Shown here in pieces: positions 8,935 through 30,565 of a DNA stretch of 44,265 nucleotides (positions within the stretch are counted from its first letter, which is position 1; each line of letters begins with the position of its first letter). A model generated the notes under the pieces. It saw only the letters and a list, made by a program, of their open reading frames with translations. It was not told the origin of the DNA and searched no databases. The stretch is from a virus (taxonomy: Duplodnaviria; Heunggongvirae; Uroviricota; Caudoviricetes), in the IMG/VR virus record IMGVR_UViG_2877973648_000002, positions 1 through 44,265 of that record. The stretch is one strand, 5' to 3'. The position numbers and the translations under genes are program-made.

Positions 8935-10422
8935 GTGGACATTAGAGACTGGCTACCAGAATTTCAAGTTTCAGCAGAAACAGATCGGGACTTACAGACC
9001 TATTTTTTTAAGCTACCGGCGATAAAGGATATTATTGAAAGTAGGGCTTGGTTGGTTCTTGGAAGAAAAGGTACTGGTAAAACAGCCATTTATGAACACC
9101 TTAGAAGAGGAAAACCAGCCAATCTCAACGGGTTTTACTCAGTATGTCTAAATTTTAGTGACTATCCATGGCCAGCCCATCAACTTTACAAGGATGCAAT
9201 GGCTGGAGAACTTTCCGCTTATCAAAAAAGTTGGATGTATCTTTTTTATATTAAGGCATTATCTAAACTTATTGAAATAAAAAATGATGCTGGAGAGACT
9301 TTAAACAAAGATCTAACGTGGGCACATAATTATATCAAAACTATCTTTGGTAGTCCCGACCCAACTCTTAGGGAGGTTTTGTTTTCAAAAATAACCAGAT
9401 TAAAAACCATAAAAGGGCCCAGTGCTGGTCTTAATGAAGTATCATTGGACGCAGGTGAAATTTCGTTAGAGGAAGTTGCTGAGAATGCTCAGCTAAAGCA
9501 AAAGCTAAGAGCTAATGCTTTCACATTGCTTACGTATTTTGAAAAAATTTTTAAAGATAACATTGGTAATGAAAAAATAATTATCGCCCTTGACCAATTA
9601 GACGAAAACTGGCTAGAGGGGCAAATTGAAGAATATAGTAAGGTTTTAATAAATCTGCTAAATGTCTGTAGAAACATAGCATCTGATGAACGCCTCAATG
9701 ATAAATTAAAAGTCATTCCCTTCCTACGAACGGATATTTATCATTCTTTGAAATTCAATGATAAAAACAAATTATTGCAAGATAGTGCTATCATAATCTC
9801 ATGGAATGAAAATAATCTAAACGATATGTATTATGAGAGGATAAAGAAATACAAACCTAATGATCTCATATTAGATGACGAAAAGGACAGATCTGGGAAA
9901 GTATTTGAGGTTTCATTCGTTAGGCAGGGGACTCCTCCATTTAAATATATATGTCGCCGTTCTTTCTTTAGGCCTAGGGATATTATTGTCTACTTCAACA
10001 AAATTAGGGCATGTCATAAAAATAATGTCTCAGGTCTTTACACTTCCAATGAGCTTTATGAAGCTGACCGTGAAGCATCTATAAGTGTGTACAATGAGGT
10101 GATTGATGAATGGTCCAACCAATTCCCTGAAATTGAGAACTTACTAACTGTTCTTCAAACTATCCAAGTAGAAACATTCGATTTTAATGATTTTTCCGAG
10201 AAGTGCCGTAATGAATTTGCAGGTATTTCTGATGGGGTGATACGTCAATATATCAACTTCCTGTTTGATAACTCACTTATCGGACAAAAAAAACAAGGTA
10301 GATGGGAATACGTAAGTAGTTTGCCTAACTTAAAAATTAATCTACAAAATGAGTTTAGGACACATCATGCTTTAAAATACAGGTTGCATTTAATAGAAAG
10401 CAGACCGAGCCAAAATATTTAG
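8935..10422 (+). CDS. P-loop NTPase of unknown function (candidate anti-phage defence or abortive-infection gene)
   Basis: 495-aa ORF, GTG start after GAGGA; Walker A LVLGRKGTGKTA near residue 40; Walker B-like IIALDQLDE near residue 215; ~270-aa C-terminal region without recognisable motif; gene and flanks visibly A+T-rich relative to neighbours. Confidence 0.7.
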   Translation: MDIRDWLPEFQVSAETDRDLQTYFFKLPAIKDIIESRAWLVLGRKGTGKTAIYEHLRRGKPANLNGFYSVCLNFSDYPWPAHQLYKDAMAGELSAYQKSWMYLFYIKALSKLIEIKNDAGETLNKDLTWAHNYIKTIFGSPDPTLREVLFSKITRLKTIKGPSAGLNEVSLDAGEISLEEVAENAQLKQKLRANAFTLLTYFEKIFKDNIGNEKIIIALDQLDENWLEGQIEEYSKVLINLLNVCRNIASDERLNDKLKVIPFLRTDIYHSLKFNDKNKLLQDSAIIISWNENNLNDMYYERIKKYKPNDLILDDEKDRSGKVFEVSFVRQGTPPFKYICRRSFFRPRDIIVYFNKIRACHKNNVSGLYTSNELYEADREASISVYNEVIDEWSNQFPEIENLLTVLQTIQVETFDFNDFSEKCRNEFAGISDGVIRQYINFLFDNSLIGQKKQGRWEYVSSLPNLKINLQNEFRTHHALKYRLHLIESRPSQNI

Positions 10423-10694: not shown

Positions 10695-10781
10695 ATGAAG
10701 CAGCAAAAGGCGATGTTAATCGCCCTGATCGTCATCTGTTTAACCGTCATAGTGACGGCACTGGTAACGAGGAAAGACTGA
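10695..10781 (+). pseudogene. hokD: Hok-family type I toxin gene (HokD/RelF-like), truncated after codon 28 by IS3
   Basis: Translation MKQQKAMLIALIVICLTVIVTALVTRKD then TGA supplied by the first bases of IS3; matches recalled HokD/RelF N-terminus. Confidence 0.6.
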
Positions 10782-10808
10782 TCCTACCCACGTAATATGG
10801 ACACAGGC

Positions 10809-11675
10809 CTAAGCGAGGTTCTGGTTTTCAAATTGTTCCGGACTGAGGCCGCCACACCAACTGTGCCGCCGCCACCGATTGTAATCACATTCGATATAAT
10901 TAAATACCGTTGCCCGCATTATTTCCCGGCTGATAAAGTGTTCTCCATGGATACATTCCACTTTCAGCGAATGAAAGAAGCTTTCCACGCAGGCATTATC
11001 GTAGCAGCAACCTTTTGCGCTCATACTTCCACGCAGATTATGCCGCTTCAGTTGCGCCTGATAATCTGCTGAACAGTACTGGCCTCCACGGTCCGTGTGA
11101 ACGATAACGTTCCGGGGCCTCTTACGCCGCCACAGCGCCATCTGCAGGGCATCGCAGGCCAGTTGCGCCGTCATGCGTGGCGACATTGACCAGCCAATAA
11201 CGGCACGTGACCACAGGTCAATGACCACTGCCAGATACAGCCAGCCTTCATCTGTACGTAAGTACGTGATGTCTCCTGCCCACTTCTGGTTCGGGCCACT
11301 GGCGTAAAAATCCTGCTCCAACAGATTTTCTGACACAGGCAGGCCGTGTGCGCGGTAGCTGACCGGGCTGAACTTCCGGGAGGCCTTTGCCCTCAGTCCC
11401 TGACGGCGCAGGCTTGCCGCCACGGTTTTTACGTTAAAGGGGTAACCCTGAGCACGCAGTTCATCCGTCAGGCGTGGGGCACCGTAACGCTGTTTTGACC
11501 GGGTAAAAGCCGCGAGGACAACGCTGTCGCAGTGTTGGCGGAACTGCTGACGCGTGCTTATCCTTGTCCGCCGCTGACACCACGTATACCAGCCGCTGCG
11601 GGCCACCCGGAGCACGCGGCACATTGCTTTGATGCTGAACTCAGCCTGATGTTTTTCAATAAAGACATACTTCAT
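10809..11675 (-). CDS. insF: IS3 transposase OrfB (DDE integrase domain)
   Basis: 288-aa ORF matching recalled IS3 InsF ([32 protein letters not shown]...). Confidence 0.95.
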
Positions 11676-11971
11676 TTCAGGCGCTTCGCGAAGTATGTCG
11701 CGGCCTTTTGGAGGATAGCCAGCTCTTCATCCCGTTCTGCCAGCTGGCGTTTGAGACGTGCAATCTCGGTAGACATCTCCAGTTCACGTTCAGAAGACGT
11801 CTGCTGATTTTGCTGTTTACTGCGCCAGTTGTAGAGCTGTGATTCATACAGGCTGAGTTCACGGGCTGCGGCAGTAACACCGATGCGTTCAGCAAGCTTC
11901 AGGGCTTCACTGCGAAATTCAGGCGAATGCTGTTTACGGGGTTTTTTACTGGTTGATACTGTTTTTGTCAT
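11672..11971 (-). CDS. insE: IS3 transposase OrfA (HTH)
   Basis: [35 protein letters not shown]...; overlaps insF in ATGA fashion, consistent with the IS3 frameshift arrangement. Confidence 0.95.
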
Positions 11972-12036
11972 GTGAGTCACCTCTGACTGAGAGTTTACTC
12001 ACTTAGCCGCGTGTCCACTATTGCTGGGTAAGATCA

Positions 12037-12273
12037 CCTGCAATGACCCCGCTGATGCTGGACACATCCACCCGTAAGCTGGTTGCGTGGGATGGCACCA
12101 CCGACGGTGCTGCCGTTGGCATTCTTGCGGTTGCTGCTGACCAGACCAGCACCACACTGACGTTCTACAAGTCCGGCACGTTCCGTTATGAGGATGTGCT
12201 CTGGCCGGAGGCTGCCAGCGACGAGACGAAAAAACGGACCGCGTTTGCCGGAACGGCAATCAGCATCGTTTAA
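12037..12273 (+). pseudogene. D: Head decoration protein D, 3' fragment beginning at the IS3 junction
   Basis: Translation from the IS3 boundary [78 protein letters not shown] matches recalled C-terminus of lambda gpD. Confidence 0.85.
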
Positions 12274-12291
12274 CTTTACCCTTCATCACTA

Positions 12292-12317
12292 AAGGCCGCC
12301 TGTGCGGCTTTTTTTAC
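12292..12317 (+). terminator. Hairpin plus T-tract between D and E
   Basis: AGGCCGCctgtGCGGCT followed by TTTTTTT. Confidence 0.5.
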
Positions 12318-12328
12318 GGGATTTTTTT

Positions 12329-12604
12329 ATGTCGATGTACACAACCGCCCAGCTGCTGGCGGCAAATGAGCAGAAATTTAAGTTTGATCCGCTGTTTCTG
12401 CGTCTCTTTTTCCGTGAGAGCTATCCCTTCACTACGGAGAAAGTCTATCTCTCACAAATTCCGGGACTGGTAAACATGGCGCTGTACGTTTCGCCGATTG
12501 TTTCCGGTGAGGTTATCCGTTCCCGTGGCGGCTCCACCTCTGAATTTACGCCGGGATATGTCAAACCCAAGCACTTAGCATGGCTTTCTGAGGCTTTCGT
12601 GTAG
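12329..12604 (+). pseudogene. E: Major capsid protein E, 5' fragment interrupted by island insertion
   Basis: MSMYTTAQLLAANEQKFKFDPLFLRLFFRESYPF...GYVKPKH matches recalled lambda gpE N-terminus, then 9 unrelated codons (LAWLSEAFV) and stop. Confidence 0.85.
12564..12573. repeat. attL core (AACCCAAGCA) of the island, within E codons K-P-K-H
   Basis: Identical 10-mer at 23488-23497 at the other junction. Confidence 0.7.
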
Positions 12605-12736: not shown

Positions 12737-13972
12737 ATGGCTGGCGAGAACAAACTGAGCGACAAAGCACTTAAAGGATATCTGGGGAAACCCAGAGAAA
12801 AGCAGATCACCATTGCTGATGGAAAGGGGCTTTCTATTCGTGTGAGTACCAAGGGGGCTGTGAGCTTTGTTTTCTTCTACAGGTTAGCAGGTGGCCGGGC
12901 TGCTCCGGTCTGGCTAACGTTGGGTAAATATCCTGATATGTCACTCAAACAGGCAAGGGAAAAGCGCGACGAGTGCCGTGGTTGGTTGGCTGACAAACGT
13001 GATCCGCGTATCCAGATTAAGATTCAGGCTGAAGAACGCTTAAAGCCGGTCACAGTGGAGGATGCACTAAATTACTGGTATGAAAATTACTGTAAGGTGC
13101 GTCGTAAAACTCATGCTGTAACGCTTGGCAGATTTCGAAAGCATATCTTTCCCTATATCGGTCATTTGCCCGTAAATGACACTCACCTATATGAATGGCT
13201 GGACTGTTTTGACCGAATTAAACGTAATGCACCAGTTATGGCGGCGTATGTTTTTTCTGACACTAAATTAGCTCTTCGTTTTTGTCGGGTACGCCAGTAC
13301 GCGACGTGTGATGCTTTAAAGGATTTGCGCATGAGTGATGTGGGGCAGATTGCAGGTAAGCGGGATCGGGTTCTGGATGAAGCCGAACTGGGCCAGCTCT
13401 GGAAGGCAATTTTTGTCGAGCCTGATTTAAAACTAATGTCTGAATACACGCGAAAAATGTTTGTGCTTTGTACAGTATTTGGATGTCGAATGAGTGAAGC
13501 CCGATTATCTGAATGGAGCGAATGGGATCTCGAAAGTTGGGTTTGGACTGTACCAAAAGATCACTCAAAAACTGGTGTTGAAATCGTCAGACCAGTACCT
13601 GAAATTCTACGACAGTGGGTAACGGATGTTCACGAAGAGACAAAACATACTGGTTATGTGCTGGGAAGTCTGCGAATTAGAGAAAGCGTAAGCAAGATTG
13701 GGGGGAAAATCGGTAAACGTTTGGGCCATGAAAAACAATGGTCACTACACGACCTTAGAAGAACGCTATCTACTCATCTAAGTGATCTCGGTGTTGAATT
13801 TTATGTAGTAGAACAACTGTTAGGCCATGCGCTACCTGGCGTGGCAGGTGTTTACAACCGGAGTAAGTTTATGGCTAAAAAACTGGATGCTCTGGAACTC
13901 TGGACTACATATCTCAATAGCATCGCAGGTGCTGATTCAAAAGTGACAATCCTCAAACAAAAGGCTGGTTAA
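12737..13972 (+). CDS. int: P4-type tyrosine integrase of the island
   Basis: 411 aa from the ATG at 12737; catalytic-region motifs (HDLRRT, LGH, Y in GVYNRS); adjacent to attL; the upstream 44 codons of the ORF look non-coding. Confidence 0.85.
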   Translation: MAGENKLSDKALKGYLGKPREKQITIADGKGLSIRVSTKGAVSFVFFYRLAGGRAAPVWLTLGKYPDMSLKQAREKRDECRGWLADKRDPRIQIKIQAEERLKPVTVEDALNYWYENYCKVRRKTHAVTLGRFRKHIFPYIGHLPVNDTHLYEWLDCFDRIKRNAPVMAAYVFSDTKLALRFCRVRQYATCDALKDLRMSDVGQIAGKRDRVLDEAELGQLWKAIFVEPDLKLMSEYTRKMFVLCTVFGCRMSEARLSEWSEWDLESWVWTVPKDHSKTGVEIVRPVPEILRQWVTDVHEETKHTGYVLGSLRIRESVSKIGGKIGKRLGHEKQWSLHDLRRTLSTHLSDLGVEFYVVEQLLGHALPGVAGVYNRSKFMAKKLDALELWTTYLNSIAGADSKVTILKQKAG

Positions 13973-13973
13973 C

Positions 13974-14201
13974 ATGAAAAAAATGGCAATTGTTGATAAA
14001 AAGGGTCTGGAGTACATTCCTAACATCGATCGTATGATCCGTGAGAAAGAATGTCGGGAGCTAACCACTCTTGCAAACAGCACACGCTGGAAGCTGGAGA
14101 AGGAAGGAAAATTTCCTAAGCGGATCAAGATTGGTTCCACTGCTGTTGCATATCGTCTTTCAGAAGTGCAGGCATGGATTCGAGGTGAGTGGGTAGTTTA
14201 A
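13974..14201 (+). CDS. alpA: AlpA-family transcriptional regulator / excisionase-like protein
   Basis: 75-aa ORF starting 1 nt after the int stop; small HTH-like protein in the position AlpA/Vis occupies in P4-like and PICI elements. Confidence 0.65.
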   Translation: MKKMAIVDKKGLEYIPNIDRMIREKECRELTTLANSTRWKLEKEGKFPKRIKIGSTAVAYRLSEVQAWIRGEWVV

Positions 14202-16253: not shown

Positions 16254-16541
16254 ATGAAAAATAAATTTTCTGGCTTTATTGCCAGCGGTCAAACTCATTC
16301 AAAAATCAGCCTTGGGGATATTTTCAAAGATAGCTATGGCTATCGAGTAAAGATTATTTCGGTTGATGATCGCCGTGTCTCTTATTTGCGTGATGGTTAT
16401 GATTTTGAATGTGTTATGCCGCGTCAGCAGTTCGAAAGAGATTTCATTCTGGTAAAAAATTGCAAGACAGATAATCAGAGGCGTGCCGCAGGCTATATCC
16501 GCAAAATTCGGGCAATGTTAGTTGCCGGAGGTAACAAATGA
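16254..16541 (+). CDS. Hypothetical protein
   Basis: 95-aa ORF tightly packed between neighbours. Confidence 0.45.
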   Translation: MKNKFSGFIASGQTHSKISLGDIFKDSYGYRVKIISVDDRRVSYLRDGYDFECVMPRQQFERDFILVKNCKTDNQRRAAGYIRKIRAMLVAGGNK

Positions 16542-18358
16542 AACGTGCTCCGAACTTAAAATACCAACCGCGCGACAAAATGACAGAAGTCATCATTTTT
16601 GCTGGCAGTGATGCCTGGAGCCATGCAAAAGAATGGAATGAATGGGCGGGTAAGCATATTGCAGCAGATGATACACCACCAGTAATTCTGGGTACGGAAC
16701 AACTGGAAAACCTGGATGATATGCAAATTATCGATGAAGGCCGTCATTATGTGCGTGTTTATCGTGCCGGAAAGATCGCAGAGAAAAATCTGACGAAGGT
16801 TGCGACATTACTTGCTATTGCAGGCGTAAAGGAAGCACGTTGTTACCGTAGCTTTGTTGATCGAGAGCCTGAAGACTGGACTCCGCGCCTTGTCGGCCTA
16901 AAAGCTGAAGCGGAGCATGGGGAAAGTCTGGTGATTGAACTGCCAGTGAAGAAGGCAGAGCGCAAAAATGACGAGCGTGCTTCATCTTTGGCGTTGAATC
17001 AGATGGGGGCCAGCCAGCGCGGTGAAGTTCTCCTGGCACATTACGGCGGCGAACTGGCAATCAATGCCGACTCTGACACCGTTCATCATTACAACGGCGT
17101 TGTATGGGAGCCGGTTCAGGATAAAGAGTTACAGCGTGCTATGGCGCAGATTTTCATTGATGCGGAGATCAGCTATTCGCAGAACGCCATTAAATCGGCG
17201 GTAGATACCATGAAGTTAAGTTTGCCTGTAATGGGGAATACAGCCCGTAACCTGATTGGATTCAGTAACGGGGTATTTGATACCAGAACAGGTAATTTTC
17301 GGGAGCATAACAAAAACGACTGGTTGTTAATTGCCAGTGAATTACCTTTCAGCCCACCAGCAGAGGGGGAAACGCTGGCAACACATGCGCCGAATTTCTG
17401 GAAGTGGTTGCGCCGTTCGGTGGCTGAGAATGACCGCAAGGCAGATCGCGTACTGGCGGCATTATTCATGGTGCTGGCGAACCGGTACGACTGGCAGTTA
17501 TTCATTGAGGTAACAGGGCCGGGGGGAAGTGGTAAAAGCGTGATGGCGGAGATTTGCACCATGCTGGCGGGTAAGGCTAATACAGTATCAGCAAGCATGA
17601 AGGCGCTGGAAGATGCAAGGGAACGTGCGTTAGTGGTTGGCTTTTCGCTGATTATCATGCCGGATATGACCCGCTACGCTGGTGATGGGGCAGGGATTAA
17701 GGCCATTACAGGCGGTGACAAGGTGGCAATTGACCCGAAACACAAAGCCCCCTATTCAACGCGTATTCCGGCAGTAGTGCTGGCGGTTAACAATAACGCC
17801 ATGTCATTCAGTGACCGCAGCGGGGGGATCTCACGTCGTCGGGTGATATTCAATTTTTCGGAAGTTGTACCGGAGAACGAACGCGATTCGATGCTGGCGG
17901 AAAAAATAGAAGGTGAGCTGGCGGTAGTGATTCGTCATCTGCTTACACGGTTTGCTGATCAGGACGAAGCCAGACGCCTGTTATATGAGCAGCAGAAATC
18001 TGAAGAAGCACTGGCGATAAAGCGAGAGGGGGATTCGCTGGTGGACTTCTGCGGCTATCTCATGGCATCGGTAATGTGTGATGGCCTGTTAGTGGGTAAT
18101 GCTGAAATTGTGCCATTCAGCCCACGCAGGTATCTCTATCATGCCTATCTGGCTTATATGAGGGCACATGGGTTTGGTAAACCTGTAACACTGACGCGCT
18201 TCGGTAAAGATATGCCGGGGGCAATGGCGGAATATGGCAGGGAGTATATGAAACGGAAAACGAAGCACGGTTTGCGTTCAAACGTGACACTGACGGAGGA
18301 ATCAGAAGACTGGATGCCATCATGTGTATCGGTCACTAATGACGATAGCAAAAATTAA
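16538..18358 (+). CDS. Primase/helicase-type replication protein (D5/P4-alpha-like SF3 NTPase)
   Basis: 606-aa ORF; Walker A VTGPGGSGKS; Walker B-like LIIMPDMT; overall resemblance to phage/plasmid primase C-terminal helicase domains; followed by iterons. Confidence 0.75.
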   Translation: MKRAPNLKYQPRDKMTEVIIFAGSDAWSHAKEWNEWAGKHIAADDTPPVILGTEQLENLDDMQIIDEGRHYVRVYRAGKIAEKNLTKVATLLAIAGVKEARCYRSFVDREPEDWTPRLVGLKAEAEHGESLVIELPVKKAERKNDERASSLALNQMGASQRGEVLLAHYGGELAINADSDTVHHYNGVVWEPVQDKELQRAMAQIFIDAEISYSQNAIKSAVDTMKLSLPVMGNTARNLIGFSNGVFDTRTGNFREHNKNDWLLIASELPFSPPAEGETLATHAPNFWKWLRRSVAENDRKADRVLAALFMVLANRYDWQLFIEVTGPGGSGKSVMAEICTMLAGKANTVSASMKALEDARERALVVGFSLIIMPDMTRYAGDGAGIKAITGGDKVAIDPKHKAPYSTRIPAVVLAVNNNAMSFSDRSGGISRRRVIFNFSEVVPENERDSMLAEKIEGELAVVIRHLLTRFADQDEARRLLYEQQKSEEALAIKREGDSLVDFCGYLMASVMCDGLLVGNAEIVPFSPRRYLYHAYLAYMRAHGFGKPVTLTRFGKDMPGAMAEYGREYMKRKTKHGLRSNVTLTEESEDWMPSCVSVTNDDSKN

Positions 18359-18364
18359 ACTTAT

Positions 18365-18601
18365 GGAATAACTGTTCACCACTGTTCACCCTGTCATAAA
18401 TATCTTTTATATCAGTATATTATAGGGTGAACAGTTATTTATGAACTGTTCACCAAACTATTCACTGTTCACCTTTTTGATTGTTTATTGAGCTTCAAGG
18501 GTGAACAGTGGTGAACAGTTGGTGAATAGTTTTTGTGAAACTGTTCACCCATTAACATTATGAATTAAAAGAGAAAATATCAAAAGGTGAACAGGTGAAG
18601 G
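18365..18601. repeat. Iteron cluster / putative replication origin of the island
   Basis: About 10 copies of CTGTTCACC / GGTGAACAG in both orientations, including tandem pairs, flanking an A+T-rich spacer. Confidence 0.7.
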
Positions 18602-18645
18602 GTTAAAACGCAAAAATTTTAATTTACTGCTGTGAGATAAAGCCT

Positions 18646-18891
18646 ATGACAGCGAAGCACACAAAAAAATCACAATCGCACGCCCTTGATTTGACGGAAC
18701 ACTGGTTAAGGGTGTCGATAAAAATCATCGACCGCAACGCCGGGGAAGGATACGCGAAAGCACATCCCGAACTGATTAGCGCATTCATGACAACGGCGGC
18801 TGCAAACTTTGCCACTCTGACCGAACGGGAGATTGCTGAAGCGGAGGAAGTGACAACAATCAATATTAAGTCCGGAGAGCAGGCAGCATGA
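18646..18891 (+). CDS. Hypothetical protein
   Basis: 81-aa ORF overlapping the start of the SSB-like gene. Confidence 0.4.
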   Translation: MTAKHTKKSQSHALDLTEHWLRVSIKIIDRNAGEGYAKAHPELISAFMTTAAANFATLTEREIAEAEEVTTINIKSGEQAA

Positions 18892-19337
18892 CGGCGCAAA
18901 TATCAGTTTACGGGCGGTTGGTGGACGACCCGCAGACAAAACAGACCAGCAAGGGCACCCCCATGACGCTGGCGCGTATGGCGGTATCACTGCCCTGCAG
19001 TCAGTCGGATGACGGTCAGGCGACGATGTGGTTATCTGTCCTGGCGTTTGGCAGACAAGCCGACGCGCTGGCAAAGCATCACAAAGGCGAACTCCTGAGC
19101 GTGGCGGGTAACATGCAGATGAGCCAGTGGACTGGACAGAACGGCGAAACGCGGCAGGGCTGGCAGGTTATCGCAGACAGCGTAATCAGTGCGCGATCGG
19201 TGCGACCGGGCGGCAATAAAGGCCAACAGGGGCAGGCTACTGACGCACTGAACAGAGCAAAACAACAGGCAGATCAGCAAGGAAGCCAGCCACCAGTGGG
19301 AGATAATGAGCAATGGGGAGATGATATCCCGTTTTAA
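18888..19337 (+). CDS. ssb: Single-stranded DNA-binding protein (SSB-like)
   Basis: 149-aa ORF with OB-fold-like N-terminus, Gly/Gln-rich linker and C-terminal acidic tail ending DDIPF as in bacterial SSB. Confidence 0.7.
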   Translation: MTAQISVYGRLVDDPQTKQTSKGTPMTLARMAVSLPCSQSDDGQATMWLSVLAFGRQADALAKHHKGELLSVAGNMQMSQWTGQNGETRQGWQVIADSVISARSVRPGGNKGQQGQATDALNRAKQQADQQGSQPPVGDNEQWGDDIPF

Positions 19338-20957: not shown

Positions 20958-21341
20958 ATGCAGAATGATTACAATGACCTTAAGCCAATTGCCGAAATGA
21001 TGTACCCGAATCAAGCTGTAGAGGAATTAAAAGCTATCGCTGACAAAATGTGTTTAAGCGAGCGCCTTGTTGATATGAATCAGGTGATGGAAATTACAAC
21101 CCTGAGTCGTCGTACACTGCTAAACCTTGAGGCTAGTGGAGAGTTCCCGGAGCGTGTGCAGGTTACGGAAGGGCGTAAGGCCTGGTATTTAAGTGAAGTG
21201 ATCGACTGGATAAATAATATTCCTCGCGCTTCTGAATATTGCCGCGTACCTGTCCCAAAAAAGCCAGATGCGGCGCTATGCCTCAAGATTGAGCGTGTAC
21301 GCCGCAATGCACGGGATGGTCGCTATAAGCTGATTGGTTGA
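20958..21341 (+). CDS. AlpA-like HTH protein (second copy)
   Basis: 127-aa ORF; central segment MNQVMEITTLSRRTLLNLEASGEFPERVQVTEGRKAWYLSEVIDWI resembles the AlpA/phage-regulator HTH. Confidence 0.5.
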   Translation: MQNDYNDLKPIAEMMYPNQAVEELKAIADKMCLSERLVDMNQVMEITTLSRRTLLNLEASGEFPERVQVTEGRKAWYLSEVIDWINNIPRASEYCRVPVPKKPDAALCLKIERVRRNARDGRYKLIG

Positions 21342-21583
21342 TGAAATTAGGGCCCGCTCTGGCTGGCGGGTCCTTTCCGGCGATCCAGAACGTTACGGGG
21401 CGTCAGGCGCGCAGATTCTTGCTATTTATGACAATTTTCTGCGATTTGCCGTTTCTGTTCTTCTTCGTTGTAACTATATGTTATTAATGGAAATGCCACC
21501 TAAAAAGAAAGGAAATGGTAAGCGCTATTTTGAGCTAAAAACAGCTTAACCGTTTCCTTTCTCCAAAATTTACTGAGGCGGCT

Positions 21584-22009
21584 ATGAATCCATGCGCAGA
21601 AGTCATGACAACTATCAAACTAAGCGGATCTTTAGCTTCTTTGTTCGCCAGAGAACATCAGCGCCTTATCGGTCCGACGCGTGAGGCATTAAGGGTATTA
21701 TCAGCCACTATTCCGGGATTTGAGAAATTCATGAACACTAGCAAGGCTTGAGGACTCACTTTCGCCGTGTTTGTGGATAAAAATAATGTCGCGCAGGATG
21801 ATCTCGATTTTCCAAATGGTGGTCGTACGATTCGAATTGTTCCGATCATTATGGGGAGTAAGCGTGCTGGTGTTCTGCAAACCATTCTTGGCGCTTTCTT
21901 GGTGGTTGGTGGTGTTCTGGGGGCAACGATAGGGCAAGCATGGAGCGGTGGTGTGTGGAGCGGCAAGTATTTTCTATTGGCAGAAGCCCATTCCGCCAAG
22001 ATAGGCTAG
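21584..22009 (+). pseudogene. Tail assembly protein I-like gene, interrupted by stop/frameshift
   Basis: 21584-21751 encodes MNPCAEVMTTIKLSGSLASLFAREHQRLIGPTREALRVLSATIPGF... (parallels the lambda gpI N-terminus) then stop; homology resumes in another frame at 21767-22009 (TIRIVPIIMGSKRAGVLQTILGAFLVVGG). Confidence 0.45.
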
Positions 22010-22104
22010 ACGTATAAGATCGGTTACAATCTATAAATCAGCTGTTGAATTATTGAATTTTAACCATATTTATCAGATGGACTTCATTCAAAAAGGTAAC
22101 TTTG

Positions 22105-22791
22105 ATGGCCGGACAATTAGACGAAGCAGCAAAACAGATTTTGGGTACCTTACTGGCAGATTTTACAGATCGAGGGTTAACTGCACAGGATTTAAAAAAT
22201 GGTTATGAAGGCCCGAACATCAATGCGCTAGCTACTGCAGTATGCAACGTCGCTGATTTTACATCTGTAGATTTTGAAGTTGCCTTTGGCGATCTCGAAA
22301 AAAGCAAACTAATCAAAACTGGCCCCATGAAAATGTTCGATAATGATCACAATAGCTCTGTGATCATTATTGCTTCTTATAGCCTACGTGAATATGTTTA
22401 TTTGACGGAGGCTGGATACAAGGAGTCCAGGAAAGTACCAAATCGCCCACAACGTGTTCAGCGTATAGTCAATAATCTAACGATCACCGGCGGACATTTC
22501 AGCAATACGCAATTAGGGCAGGGAGAGGTCGTTTCCCAAACCCAAAACATCACAAGCAGTTCCGATTCTGAAATAGTTGCTAAGCTGATTTCTATCATTG
22601 AAGAACAGGGGCAAGTAGTTAACAGCGATCAACGTTCTGATATTGAAGCAGCTGTGGCAGCCGCTAATGAAGGTGATGGTAAAGAAGCGAAATCATTGCT
22701 GTCTAAAGTATGCGGTCCTGTTTGGGAGTCTGTGCAACCAGTAATATGGCCGATCATTGGTGAGTTGGTTAAGAAAGGGCTCGGGATTTAA
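22105..22791 (+). CDS. Hypothetical protein (island cargo)
   Basis: 228 aa from the ATG at 22105 with AAGG RBS; no recognisable motif; A+T-rich. Confidence 0.5.
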   Translation: MAGQLDEAAKQILGTLLADFTDRGLTAQDLKNGYEGPNINALATAVCNVADFTSVDFEVAFGDLEKSKLIKTGPMKMFDNDHNSSVIIIASYSLREYVYLTEAGYKESRKVPNRPQRVQRIVNNLTITGGHFSNTQLGQGEVVSQTQNITSSSDSEIVAKLISIIEEQGQVVNSDQRSDIEAAVAAANEGDGKEAKSLLSKVCGPVWESVQPVIWPIIGELVKKGLGI

Positions 22792-22983
22792 TTTAATAAA
22801 TTCTAAAAGGGCTGTTTGGGTAGTATTTTTATGGGGCTCTTCAATTAAAAGGAGTCATAGGGTCAAACGATGTGCCTATGACTCCTGGATAAAGCCATCA
22901 GAGAATATTAGTGTTAACAATTTCTCTTCAGCCCTTGTTTATACGATGCCAGCTTCAGAACCGAATCAACGCTCATGCGATCT

Positions 22984-23271
22984 TTAGCATCTCGGTAATG
23001 ACAGTAAGTTATTATTCCATCGACCATCAGCATAAGTACGTATAAATTTCCGCCCTCCCCCTCCTGGATCAACGACACCTACATCAGCACGTTTGCCATA
23101 ACTATCAGTGACATAGAAAGTATGTAACTTGTTCTCAATTGAATTAACTACATCTGCCACAGTCCACTTACTTCCAGGGGGATTAAATTGAGGGCTTCCC
23201 ACATGAGTAATGTGTTCATGAAGGGCGTTCGAACTGGAGAGAGTAATACAAGTTAATCGTACATCAACCAT
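22984..23271 (-). CDS. Hypothetical small protein (island cargo)
   Basis: 95 aa from the ATG at 23271 with AAGGAG RBS; glycine-rich loop DPGGGGRK; convergent with the 228-aa gene. Confidence 0.45.
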   Translation of the reverse strand: MVDVRLTCITLSSSNALHEHITHVGSPQFNPPGSKWTVADVVNSIENKLHTFYVTDSYGKRADVGVVDPGGGGRKFIRTYADGRWNNNLLSLPRC

Positions 23272-23487: not shown

Positions 23488-23497
23488 AACCCAAGCA
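23488..23497. repeat. attR core (AACCCAAGCA) of the island
   Basis: Identical to 12564-12573; E coding sequence continues immediately after. Confidence 0.7.
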
Positions 23498-24278
23498 TGA
23501 GGTGAATCCGCAGATGACCCTGCGTCGCCTGCCGGATGAAGATCCGCAGAATCTGGCGGACCCGGCTTACCGCCGCCGTCGCATCATCATGCAGAACATG
23601 CGTGACGAAGAGCTGGCCATTGCTCAGGTCGAAGAGATGCAGGCAGTTTCTGCCGTGCTCAAGGGCAAATACACCATGACCGGTGAAGCCTTCGATCCGG
23701 TTGAGGTGGATATGGGCCGCAGTGCGGCGAACAACATCACACAGTCCGGCGTCACGGAGTGGAGCAAGCGTGACAAGTCCACGTATGACCCGACCGACGA
23801 TATCGAAGCCTACGCGCTGAACGCCAGCGGTGTGGTGAATATCATCGTGTTTGACCCGAAAGGCTGGGCGCTGTTCCGTTCCTTCAAAGCCGTCAGGGAG
23901 AAGCTGGATACCCGTCGCGGCTCTCATTCCGAGCTGGAGACAGCGGTGAAAGACCTGGGCAAAGCGGTGTCCTATAAGGGAATGTATGGCGATGTGGCCA
24001 TCGTCGTGTATTCCGGACAGTACGTGGAAAACGGCGTCAAAAAGAACTTCCTGCCGGACAACACGATGGTGCTGGGGAACACTCAGGCTCGCGGTCTGCG
24101 CACCTATGGCTGCATTCAGGATGCGGATGCATTGAGTGAGGGTATTAATGCGTCTCCCCGTTATCCGAAAAACTGGAAGACATCCGGCGATCCGGCGCGA
24201 GAGTTCACCATGATTCAGTCAGCACCGCTGATGCTGCTGGCTGATCCTGATGAGTTCGTGTCCGTTCAACTGGCGTAA
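23490..24278 (+). pseudogene. E: Major capsid protein E, 3' fragment
   Basis: From the attR repeat the frame reads PKHEVNPQMTLRRLPDEDPQNLADPAYRRRRIIMQNMRDEELAIAQVEEMQ... to ...ADPDEFVSVQLA, matching recalled lambda gpE residues ~80-341; a stop lies immediately upstream in frame. Confidence 0.85.
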
Positions 24279-27667: not shown

Positions 27668-30239
27668 ACCGGTAGGCGATCTGGTCGTTGATTTAAGTCT
27701 GGATGCGGCCAGATTTGACGAGCAGATGGCCAGAGTCAGGCGTCATTTTTCCGGTACGGAAACTGATGCGAAAAAAACAGCGGCAGTCGTTGAACAGTCG
27801 CTGAGCCGACAGGCGCTGGCTGCACAGAAAGCGGGGATTTCCGTCGGGCAGTATAAAGCCGCCATGCGTATGCTGCCTGCACAGTTCACCGACGTGGCCA
27901 CGCAGCTTGCAGGCGGGCAAAGCCCGTGGCTGATCCTGCTGCAACAGGGGGGTCAGGTTAAGGACTCCTTCGGCGGGATGATCCCCATGTTCAGGGGGCT
28001 TGCCGGTGCGATCACCCTGCCGATGGTGGGGGCCACCTCGCTGGCGGTGGCGACCGGTGCGCTGGCGTATGCCTGGTATCAGGGCAACTCAACCCTGTCC
28101 GATTTCAACAAAACGCTGGTTCTTTCCGGCAATCAGGCGGGACTGACGGCAGATCGTATGCTGGTCCTGTCCAGAGCCGGGCAGGCGGCAGGGCTGACGT
28201 TTAACCAGACCAGCGAGTCACTGACGGCGCTGGTGAATGCCGGTGTGCGTGGTGGTGAGCAGTTTGAGGCGATCAGCCAGAGTGTGGCGCGTTTCTCCTC
28301 TGCATCCGGCGTGGAGGTGGACAAGGTCGCTGAAGCCTTCGGGAAGCTGACCACAGACCCGACGTCGGGACTGACAGCGATGGCACGTCAGTTCCATAAC
28401 GTGACGGCGGAGCAGATTGCGTATGTTGCTCAGTTGCAGCGTTCCGGAGATGAAGCCGGGGCATTGCAGGCGGCGAACGAGGCCGCAACGAAAGGGTTTG
28501 ATGACCAGACCCGCCGCCTGAAAGAGAACATGGGCACGCTGGAGACCTGGGCAGACAGGACAGCACGGGCATTCAAATCCATGTGGGATTCGGTGCTGGA
28601 TATTGGTCGCCCGGACACTGCCCAGGGAATGCTGGAGAAAGCAGAAAAGGCTTTTGATGAGGCGGACAAAAAATGGCAGTGGTATCAGAGCCGGAGCCAC
28701 CGGCGCGGTAAAACCTCAGCATTTCTTGCCAATCTCCGGGGAGCATGGGAGGACAGAGCGAATGCGCAACTTGGGCTTTCAGCCGCCACGTTGCAGGCCG
28801 ATCTTGAAAAGGCCAGAGAGATGGCAGCAAAGGACTGGGCCGAGTCTGAGGCATCACGGCTGAAATATACCGAAGAGGCGCAGAAGGCTTACGAACGGCT
28901 GCAGACGCCGCTGGAGAAATATACCGCCCGTCAGGAAGAACTGAACAAGGCACTGAAAGACGGGAAAATCCTGCAGGCAGATTACAACACGCTGATGGCG
29001 GCGGCGAAAAAGGATTATGAAGCGACGCTGAAAAAGCCGAAACAGTCCGGCGTGAAAGTGTCTGCGGGCGATCGTCAGGAAGACAGTGCTCATGCTGCCC
29101 TGCTGACGCTTCAGGCTGAACTCCGGACGCTGGAGAAGCATGCCGGAGCAAATGAGAAAATCAGCCAGCAGCGCCGGGATTTGTGGAAGGCGGAGAGTCA
29201 GTTCGCGGTACTGGAGGAGGCGGCGCAACGTCGCCAGCTGTCCGCACAGGAGAAATCCCTGCTGGCGCATAAAGATGAGACGCTGGAGTACAAACGCCAG
29301 CTGGCTGCACTTGGCGACAAGGTTACGTATCAGGAGCGCCTGAACGCGCTGGCGCAGCAGGCGGATAAGTTCGCACAGCAACAACGGGCAAAACGGGCAG
29401 CCATTGAGGCGAAAAACCGGGGGCTTACTGACCGGCAGGCAGCGCGGGAAGCCACAGAACAGCGCCTGAAGGAACAGTATGGCGATAATTCGCTGGCGCT
29501 GAATAACGTCATGTCAGAGCAGAAAAAGACCTGGGCGGCTGAAGACCAGCTTCGCGGGAGCTGGATGGCAGGCCTCAGGTCCGGCTGGAGTGAGTGGGAA
29601 GAGAGCGCCACGGACAGTATGTCGCAGGTTAAAAGTGCAGCCACGCAGACCTTTGATGGTATTACGCAGAATATGGCGGCGATGCTGACCGGCAGTGAGC
29701 AGAACTGGCGCAGCTTCACCCGTTCCGTGCTGTCCATGATGACAGAAATTCTGCTTAAGCAGGCAATGGTGGGGATTGTCGGGAGTATCGGTAGCGCCAT
29801 TGGCGGGGCTGTTGGTGGCGGCGCATCCGCATCAGGCGGTACAGCCATTCAGGCCGCTGCGGCGAAATTCCATTTTGCAACCGGAGGATTTACGGGAACC
29901 GGCGGCAAATATGAGCCAGCGGGGATTGTTCACCGTGGTGAATTTGTCTTCACGAAGGAGGCAACCAGCCGAATTGGTGTCGGCAACCTGTACCGCCTGA
30001 TGCGGGGCTATGCGGAAGGTGGTTATGTGGGCGGTGCCGGAAGTCCGGCGCAGATGCGGCGGGCTGAAGGCATTAATTTTAATCAGAACAATCACGTGGT
30101 GATTCAGAACGACGGTACGAATGGTCTGCCAGGTCCACAGATGATGAAGGCAGTGTATGACATGGCCCGCAAGGGTGCCCGTGATGAAATTCAGACACAG
30201 ATGCGTGATGGTGGCCTGTTCTCCGGAGGTGGACGATGA
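27660..30239 (+). CDS. H: Tail tape measure protein H
   Basis: 859-aa ORF starting MAEPVGDLVVDLSLDAARFDEQMARVRRHF; long helical middle; C-terminus matches recalled lambda gpH. Confidence 0.9.
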   Translation: MAEPVGDLVVDLSLDAARFDEQMARVRRHFSGTETDAKKTAAVVEQSLSRQALAAQKAGISVGQYKAAMRMLPAQFTDVATQLAGGQSPWLILLQQGGQVKDSFGGMIPMFRGLAGAITLPMVGATSLAVATGALAYAWYQGNSTLSDFNKTLVLSGNQAGLTADRMLVLSRAGQAAGLTFNQTSESLTALVNAGVRGGEQFEAISQSVARFSSASGVEVDKVAEAFGKLTTDPTSGLTAMARQFHNVTAEQIAYVAQLQRSGDEAGALQAANEAATKGFDDQTRRLKENMGTLETWADRTARAFKSMWDSVLDIGRPDTAQGMLEKAEKAFDEADKKWQWYQSRSHRRGKTSAFLANLRGAWEDRANAQLGLSAATLQADLEKAREMAAKDWAESEASRLKYTEEAQKAYERLQTPLEKYTARQEELNKALKDGKILQADYNTLMAAAKKDYEATLKKPKQSGVKVSAGDRQEDSAHAALLTLQAELRTLEKHAGANEKISQQRRDLWKAESQFAVLEEAAQRRQLSAQEKSLLAHKDETLEYKRQLAALGDKVTYQERLNALAQQADKFAQQQRAKRAAIEAKNRGLTDRQAAREATEQRLKEQYGDNSLALNNVMSEQKKTWAAEDQLRGSWMAGLRSGWSEWEESATDSMSQVKSAATQTFDGITQNMAAMLTGSEQNWRSFTRSVLSMMTEILLKQAMVGIVGSIGSAIGGAVGGGASASGGTAIQAAAAKFHFATGGFTGTGGKYEPAGIVHRGEFVFTKEATSRIGVGNLYRLMRGYAEGGYVGGAGSPAQMRRAEGINFNQNNHVVIQNDGTNGLPGPQMMKAVYDMARKGARDEIQTQMRDGGLFSGGGR

Positions 30240-30565
30240 AAACCTTCCGCTGGAAAGTGAAACCCGGTATGGATGTGGCTTCGGCCCCTTCCGTCAGGAA
30301 AGTGCGCTTTGGTGATGGCTATTCCCAGCGAGCGCCTGCCGGGCTGAATGCCGACCTGAAAACGTACAGCGTGACGCTTTCTGTTCCCCGTTGGGAGGCC
30401 ACGGCGCTGGAGTCGTTTCTGGCTGAGCACGGGGGCTGGAAAGCCTTTCTGTGGACGCCGCCTTATGAGTGGCGGCAGATAAAGGTGACCTGCGCAAAAT
30501 GGTCGTCGCGGGTCAGTATGCTGCGTGTTGAGTTCAGCGCAGAGTTTGAACAGGTGGTGAACTGA
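30236..30565 (+). CDS. M: Tail tip protein M
   Basis: 109-aa ORF MKTFRWKVKPGMDVASAPSVRKVRFGDGYSQRAPAGLNADLKTYSVTL... matches recalled lambda gpM. Confidence 0.85.
   Translation: MKTFRWKVKPGMDVASAPSVRKVRFGDGYSQRAPAGLNADLKTYSVTLSVPRWEATALESFLAEHGGWKAFLWTPPYEWRQIKVTCAKWSSRVSMLRVEFSAEFEQVVN

Follow-up and report, generated by a model that had tools for sequence, protein, structure and literature searches.

What is the function of a dense array of short repeats that starts directly behind a putative primase/helicase gene in a phage-like island of Escherichia coli, and which protein is likely to act on it? We addressed this question in a 44,265-nt stretch of DNA (hereafter the window, to which all coordinates refer unless stated otherwise) that is classified as Caudoviricetes (IMG/VR record IMGVR_UViG_2877973648_000002) and is 100% identical to the chromosome of E. 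coli AREA_C483. A preliminary description of this DNA had read the array as a Rep-binding origin. Based on sequence comparisons, we estimate a probability of approx. 85% that the array represents the replication origin of a phage satellite of ~10.9 kb, i.e., a helper-embedded PICI of the 11capE type.

Architecture of the iteron array

The 9-mer CTGTTCACC occurs in ten exact copies in the window, nine of which are located within the 223 bp from position 18372 to position 18594 (five on the + strand and four on the - strand). As dinucleotide-preserving shuffles yielded a mean of 0.34 and a maximum of 3 copies per window, a chance origin of the repeat cluster could be ruled out. Lone copies of TGTTCACC, the 8-bp core of the iteron, at positions 397, 23332, 29927, 34132 and 36954 are within the chance level for this shorter sequence (1.5 per window). 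A tenth iteron in the array, CTATTCACC (18521-18529, - strand), carries one mismatch, and the approximately ten copies in both orientations that had been reported for this segment are thus recovered as nine exact copies and one near-exact copy. Two further iterons (18459-18466, + strand, and 18594-18601, - strand) are degenerate, with two mismatches each as compared to the 8-bp core, and good copies are found at these places in close relatives; the array in total comprises 12 iterons, nine of which are perfect. Neighboring iterons on the same strand are spaced 10-11 bp apart, i.e., about one helical turn, at 18373/18383 and at 18500/18510/18521, in agreement with the tandem copies described previously. 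The first iteron starts 13 nt past the stop codon (18356-18358) of the open reading frame at 16538-18358, which is also consistent with the earlier statement that the array lies immediately downstream of this gene.

The array is composed of two inverted copies of one module of ~100 bp, which are joined at their three-iteron ends and show 70% identity after one of them is reverse-complemented. The left module (18373-18473, + strand) includes the iterons at 18373-18380 (+), 18383-18390 (+), 18426-18433 (-), 18447-18454 (+), 18459-18466 (+, degenerate) and 18466-18473 (+), while the right module (18500-18601, + strand) includes those at 18500-18507 (-), 18510-18517 (-), 18521-18528 (-, one mismatch), 18542-18549 (+), 18586-18593 (-) and 18594-18601 (-, degenerate). 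Each module contains an A+T-rich spacer that is bracketed by convergent iterons and represents a candidate unwinding element, i.e., spacer A in the left module (18391-18425; 35 bp, 80% A+T) and spacer B in the right module (18550-18585; 36 bp, 83% A+T). Judged by nearest-neighbor free energy, both spacers fall into the 0.3-0.6% of 30-mers with the lowest stability in the window (0.4-0.6% for the 30-mers of spacer A). A central spacer of 26 bp (18474-18499), which is poorly conserved in relatives, separates the two modules. The A+T-richness noted in the preliminary description is therefore real, but the single core proposed there has to be replaced by two A+T-rich spacers and the central spacer between the modules.

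No open reading frame of at least 40 amino acids (aa) was found inside the array, no DnaA box, IHF consensus or GATC sequence was found in the array region, and no sigma-70 promoter or terminator was found between positions 18200 and 18800. Taken together, these negative results fit a self-contained, initiator-driven origin. A DnaA- or IHF-dependent origin was rejected as the respective boxes are missing, a role as promoter or terminator was rejected on the basis of the search of positions 18200 to 18800, and a structured RNA was rejected because Rfam gave no match in the island.

As neither a terminator nor a promoter separates the primase/helicase gene (pri) from the genes downstream, the array is probably crossed by transcription of the pri operon. 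Such read-through would also suit iterons that mainly serve control, either by titration or handcuffing of the initiator (copy number control) or as a roadblock or operator acting on read-through into the genes for the single-strand DNA-binding protein (SSB) and the capsid; the two inverted modules could pair with each other, and some genomes carry up to six copies of the array. However, iterons flanking an easily melted spacer represent the architecture of origins that are sufficient in phage P4 and in PICIs, and we regard a predominantly regulatory array as quite improbable. Moreover, control and initiation do not exclude each other, so that control would be a function added to the origin rather than an alternative to it.

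The island and its host prophage

The array is located in an island of ~10.9 kb between att cores at 12564 and 23497. This island lies inside a lambdoid prophage and divides its major capsid gene into two fragments (12329-12574 and 23490-24278, both on the + strand). The attL core (12564-12573, + strand), located inside the interrupted capsid gene, and the attR core (23488-23497, + strand) are identical over 10 bp (AACCCAAGCA). With a split capsid gene and AACCCAAGCA at both junctions, the island shows the features of a helper-embedded PICI at site E:Phage_cap_E:80 (11capE type).

Annotation places an integrase gene (12737-13972, + strand) and a gene for an AlpA-family regulator (13974-14201, + strand; Pfam Phage_AlpA, E = 2.8e-15) at the left end of the island. 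These are followed by small genes, a DUF4222 gene, the gene for a 606-aa "DNA primase family protein", the array, an 81-aa open reading frame and ssb, past which lie a lambda-type major capsid gene, a head-decoration gene, an AlpA-family HTH gene and then cargo; int, alpA, pri, ssb and the capsid and decoration genes are all on the + strand. The 81-aa protein encoded directly after the array (18646-18891, + strand; phrog_1231, E = 2e-48) is conserved but of unknown function, and a gene in the same position is present in EcCICFT073 and 11capE. The island SSB is encoded at 18888-19337 (+ strand; Pfam SSB, E = 1.7e-16). The AlpA-family HTH protein encoded directly after the capsid and decoration genes (20958-21341; 127 aa; PDB 8C3T, E = 2e-9; phrog_2790, 'excisionase and transcriptional regulator') is the second of this family in the island.

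The host prophage, which occupies the Qin/ydfJ site (dicB, ydfA-D, pinQ, ydfK; positions 20-42400 of the window, especially 10695-12574), is defective. Truncated forms of hokD and of a head-decoration gene border an IS3 element (10809-11971). The genes for lysis, terminase, portal and protease are missing from the surrounding prophage, where only tail genes are found downstream of the split capsid gene. As its host prophage is defective, this copy of the satellite is without a complete helper in cis. Among 5426 complete E. coli genomes, 594 contain the 301-bp array region at ≥90% identity, at up to six places per genome, and several islands with the same origin specificity can thus coexist in one genome while integrated.

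PICIs of the 11capE type carry cos sites downstream of their replication module (PMC10111431), and a packaging (cos) site, or a recombination site, was therefore also considered for the array. No lambda cosN-like sequence was found in or near it, though, the att core lies elsewhere, and the repeated motif is that of a replication initiator; a packaging or recombination function hence appears extremely improbable.

Comparison with known PICI and SaPI origins

In Eco567.11capE of E. coli NRG857c (Tommasini, Mageeney & Williams 2023, PMC10111431), the genes are ordered as in the window island and the primase has the identical accession (WP_000817023.1), and the two arrays are identical at 295 of 296 positions over 18355-18650. 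Both elements also interrupt a capsid gene of the lambda-E type, with an att core of 10 bp (reported as a 10-bp identity block in PMC10111431). They differ in their hosts, i.e., a 50-kb icd prophage in NRG857c as compared to the defective Qin/ydfJ prophage in the window, as well as, in spite of their near-identity elsewhere, in the cargo at the right end, where 11capE of NRG857c (28279-30253 of that element's record) contains HEPN and DUF262 genes (defence-like) and the window (21334-23271) contains other genes. The window cargo includes genes for a 228-aa protein of unknown function (22105-22791; phrog_28570) and an 80-aa tail-assembly-like fragment (21767-22009) as well as a DUF3892 gene (22984-23271, - strand).

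When 11capE is induced, the whole prophage-satellite composite excises and replicates, followed by excision of the satellite, and the reported attP:attB ratio reached 1.6-1.9 in one of three repeats and stayed near 1 in the other two (PMC10111431). With ratios of ~1 in two of the three repeats, autonomous replication after excision is not clearly seen for this allele, and passive replication within the prophage was stressed by the authors of that study (PMC10111431). This scarce or absent amplification after excision, along with the defective state of the surrounding prophage (IS3; no lysis, terminase or portal genes), would be expected if the origin were a relic here, with an array that no longer fires and an island that is copied only passively with the prophage or the chromosome. 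On the other hand, the initiator reading frame is intact, nine of the 12 iterons are perfect, and the array is 90-100% conserved in the 594 E. coli genomes mentioned above. In addition, conservation of the iterons across genera and their covariation with the binding domain (see below) require ongoing selection, which counts against a relic, and we consider this explanation improbable.

The origin of EcCICFT073 (Fillol-Salom et al. 2018, PMC6092414), an island with the gene order of the window island, likewise adjoins the 3' end of pri and precedes a small open reading frame and ssb. An A+T-rich region is again bordered by two sets of iterons, about 10-12 over about 225 bp, whose orientations follow the pattern of the window array. 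EcCICFT073 nevertheless represents a different allele, with T(G/A/C)TCTACC rather than TGTTCACC as the iteron and with a second spacer that is not A+T-rich. A pri-ori plasmid of EcCICFT073 was kept at the restrictive temperature, deletion of either pri or ori impaired its maintenance, and over-expression of AlpA made the excised island replicate in a manner that depended on pri and int (PMC6092414). Two features that characterize Gram-negative PICI origins are found in the window, i.e., the array is located downstream of pri in an island with int, alpA and pri in one direction, and iterons flank an A+T-rich region in each of the two modules. The SaPIbov1 and SaPI1 origins, which are served by Pri-Rep, are also located directly 3' of the gene for a self-loading SF3 helicase and also show iterons flanking an A+T-rich region (PMC6092414); their iteron sequences are unrelated to those in the window, however, the proteins are distant, and SaPIs are Gram-positive elements with a divergent regulatory layout.

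The adjacent 606-aa protein

The gene directly upstream of the array (16538-18358, + strand) encodes a putative initiator of 606 aa that resembles Pri-Rep and P4 alpha and comprises a D5_N region, an SF3 helicase domain and a C-terminal origin-binding domain. Pfam matches were found for D5_N (residues 163-292), DUF5906 (SF3 helicase; residues 326-434) and Pox_D5 (residues 497-592). Residues 149-596, i.e., the helicase and the C-terminus, show 50.6% identity over 448 aa to residues ~323-771 of P4 alpha, while the helicase core matches the staphylococcal protein 7OLA (E = 2.6e-10) and the protein is 44% identical to EcCICFT073 Pri.

Residues 498-594 (18029-18319, + strand) match the C-terminal domain of P4 alpha (PDB 1KA8, chain residues 2-99; phmmer, E = 1.9e-24) and are predicted to form a winged-helix origin-binding domain. 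From the topology of winged-helix domains, residues K572-L585 (KRKTKHGLRSNVTL; 18251-18292, + strand) should represent the beta-hairpin wing, and this segment, which varies with the iteron, is a putative determinant of specificity. An AlphaFold single-sequence model of residues 487-606 had a pLDDT of 38.

The N-terminal 148 residues (16538-16981) show no homology to the DnaG-type primase domain of P4 alpha, as homology to alpha starts at residue 149, and no Pfam match was found for residues 1-160 even at E ≤ 10; matches were found to PHROG 864 ('DNA primase', E = 3e-16) and PHROG 2850 (unknown function). As this N-terminus is unrelated to the P4 primase domain and without a Pfam match, self-priming by the 606-aa protein is hypothetical. 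In the label primase/helicase given to this protein in the preliminary description, the helicase is borne out by the SF3 domain, while the primase derives from annotation and from the PHROG match. The N-terminal domain is also the most variable part of the protein among relatives, with 40-52% identity where the helicase domain shows 91-97%.

Relationship to the origin and crr of phage P4

For P4, we relied on the annotation of GenBank X51522, on PDB 1KA8 and on PMC2777425. The 8-bp sequence TGTTCACC is the "ori type 1 repeat" of the P4 record X51522, in which six copies are located in the annotated origin (9310-9413) and ten in crr, which directly follows the alpha gene on its 3' side and is labeled "cis required region for replication" (GenBank X51522). 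The right module is colinear with P4 ori1 and shows 70% identity over 111 nt, a value equal to the similarity between the two halves of the window array, and the reverse complement of the left module is colinear with ori1 as well (63% identity over 111 nt). As compared to the crr units, identity was 57-59% for the right module and ranged from 48 to 59% overall. The start positions of the iterons, relative to the first, are 0/10/21/42/86/94 in the right module and 0/10/21/43/86/96 in P4 ori1. The window modules thus share with ori1 an identical type I iteron of 8 bp and the arrangement of six iterons as three, one inverted, an A+T-rich stretch of ~35 bp and two more. Ziegelin et al. are said to have found in 1993 that alpha binds the type I iterons of both ori and crr, and Tocchetti et al. 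reportedly narrowed ori1 down in 1999 to a segment of about 123 bp that contains six iterons and an A+T-rich stretch of 35 bp.

Within spacer B, the motif TAAC..ATGAAT (18553-18566) is kept in relatives across seven genera and is partly common to P4 ori1 (9364-9377 of the P4 record) and to the crr spacers; it might be a start site for priming or melting.

The window island and P4 also show clear differences. P4 has a single ori1 unit 4.5 kb from alpha and a separate crr, whereas two inverted units abut the initiator gene in the window, and the distant partner cluster of a P4-style bipartite origin is absent from the island. The SF3 helicase and the winged-helix origin-binding domain of the window initiator are homologous to those of alpha, but the N-terminal domains of the two proteins are unrelated. 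Furthermore, the body of the island is of the PICI type, as no sid, psu, delta or epsilon is annotated, unlike in P4, and lambda-type capsid and decoration genes are present instead.

The array resembles P4 crr in that it is located immediately 3' of the initiator gene, with type I iterons that flank a similar A+T-rich spacer. As the array in this position is crr and not the initiation site in P4, and as spacer B resembles the P4 crr spacer (gaaattaaaagagaaaa), the window array might be a crr-like cis-acting enhancer of replication, with initiation elsewhere in the island. P4 crr, however, is built from a pair of direct repeats of ~120 bp, each of which has five type I iterons, in the order 1 + 3 + spacer + 2, whereas the window units are inverted, ~100 bp long and of the ori1 type in the order and spacing of their iterons, and they are closer to ori1 (63-70%) than to crr (48-59%). 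Initiation elsewhere is also difficult to reconcile with the lack of a second iteron cluster in the ~10.9-kb island, and in EcCICFT073 deletion of the equivalently placed array impaired a pri-ori plasmid that was free of other island DNA (PMC6092414). Overall, a crr-like enhancer appears unlikely, and these comparisons favor an origin composed of two ori1-type units.

Conservation of the array and covariation with the wing segment

A scan of one genome per species identified 72 loci that encode relatives of the 606-aa protein. In relatives from seven other genera, including Raoultella, Pluralibacter, Kluyvera, Citrobacter and Klebsiella, the same TGTTCACC array is located right after the gene, and it is also kept after the initiator gene of the induced element vB_KppS-Ant. 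Among seven aligned sequences, 68 of 95 iteron columns were invariant as compared to 48 of 146 columns in spacers and other positions (P = 4e-9; Fisher's exact test), with some bias from the definition of iteron columns on the window sequence.

Escherichia phage vB_KppS-Ant (LR881103.1, 9938-11949) encodes an initiator with 74% identity followed by the same TGTTCACC double-module array; this induced element of 16.5 kb brings its own genes for terminase, portal and capsid and resembles a capsid-forming PICI. The same replicon is therefore used by at least three satellite body plans, i.e., P4-like, PICI or helper-embedded PICI, and capsid-forming PICI.

Other relatives retain the position of the array and the orientation pattern ++-+++--+-- while the 8-mer differs. 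The iteron is TGTCTACC in E. ruysiae, K. georgiana, E. hormaechei and EcCICFT073, TGTCCGCC or TGTCCACC in Serratia, TGTGCACC in Proteus, TCTCTACC in Symbiopectobacterium and TATACA(C/T)C (TATACAYC) in Xenorhabdus and Photorhabdus. Across these classes, the three bases at the center vary and the outer positions T-T---CC are largely retained. In the closest group, residues 572-585 are rewritten, including a 5-aa insertion (KRKTKHG-LRSNVTL to RAKCTKGPDKGRVITNVLL), where TGTTCACC gives way to TGTCTACC, while the helicase domain is still 92-97% identical. Each iteron class was found with its own version of the 572-585 segment, and EcCICFT073 and Symbiopectobacterium have both KGVTQTN and the TCTACC core in common.

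Three Proteus loci with P4-alpha-like genes showed, in the short flanks examined, a single ori1-type unit (++-+++) with the iteron TGTGCACC about 30-150 nt past the gene. With a single unit in place of a double unit or a crr-type repeat, these loci indicate that the number and arrangement of units vary across the family, and some elements may manage with one unit.

Discussion

The interpretation of the array as a Rep-binding origin, put forward in the preliminary description, is strengthened by several independent lines of evidence, i.e., identity of the iteron to that of P4, colinearity with ori1, homology of the adjacent protein to 1KA8, covariation of the iteron with the binding domain, and a position and layout as in EcCICFT073. 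While the anatomy of the array, its homologies, its conservation and this covariation are direct observations, binding, melting, helicase loading, the identity of the priming enzyme and the division of labor between the two modules are proposed by homology with P4. In such a model, the 606-aa protein would bind the TGTTCACC iterons via its C-terminal winged-helix domain, and the helically phased iterons beside each A+T-rich spacer of 35-36 bp would concentrate the initiator, upon which the spacer would melt and the SF3 helicase domain of the initiator would assemble on the opened DNA. The island SSB, encoded ~290 bp downstream of the array, would coat and stabilize the single strands. Priming, followed by synthesis by the host polymerase, would then result in theta replication of the excised circle and in concatemers for cos packaging. 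Each of the two modules may load one helicase, allowing for bidirectional replication; alternatively, the paired modules may combine at a single site the functions that in P4 are divided between ori1 and the distant crr.

An origin of this kind is already known. Gram-negative PICI origins located 3' of pri have been described, the element itself has been published as 11capE, and the iteron was described decades ago for P4; an origin at the position of the array will not surprise a specialist. Full-text searching with the bare motif yielded nothing but primer sequences of no relevance to the array. In the accessible part of the literature on P4 and PICI satellites, we found no statement of a PICI allele with the exact P4 iteron and ori1 geometry (which may already appear in Figure 2 of PMC6092414), of the array as a head-to-head pair of ori1 units, or of a correspondence between iteron class and a short stretch within the C-terminal domain. 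Fillol-Salom et al. considered PICI Pri-Rep only distantly related to alpha (PMC6092414), and de Sousa et al. suggested that satellite replicases are "analogs instead of homologs" (PMC10085698). For the window allele, the alignments point to a helicase, origin-binding parts and an origin that are plainly homologous to those of P4. We consider this link to P4 and the covariation of wing and iteron to be modest additions.

The window PICI allele and P4-like satellites share the iteron, the geometry of the module and the wing motif KR(K/H)TK(H/Q)G(I/L)(R/Q)(S/T)N, and cross-binding of initiators between the two families is therefore possible. We tentatively raise the idea, which we hold with some doubt, that one origin specificity is common to this PICI allele and P4-like satellites, so that, in an E. 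coli cell with both satellites, the initiator of either family could bind to the origin of its counterpart and might even fire or titrate it. The replicon would then represent a cassette of helicase, swappable wing and matching iterons that moves between satellite families.

If the array functions as proposed, the present data would name the DNA and the protein domain behind the replication of a widespread satellite, found in 594 of 5426 complete E. coli genomes, and the replicon of this satellite would be a P4 replicon in the body of another satellite. The matched variants of wing and iteron provide a natural series from which origin specificity may be read out or re-engineered, and the compact pri-ori cassette defined here may be of use for PICI-based delivery vectors. 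For the biology of these elements, cross-talk or incompatibility may be expected between P4-like satellites and PICIs on account of the shared origin.
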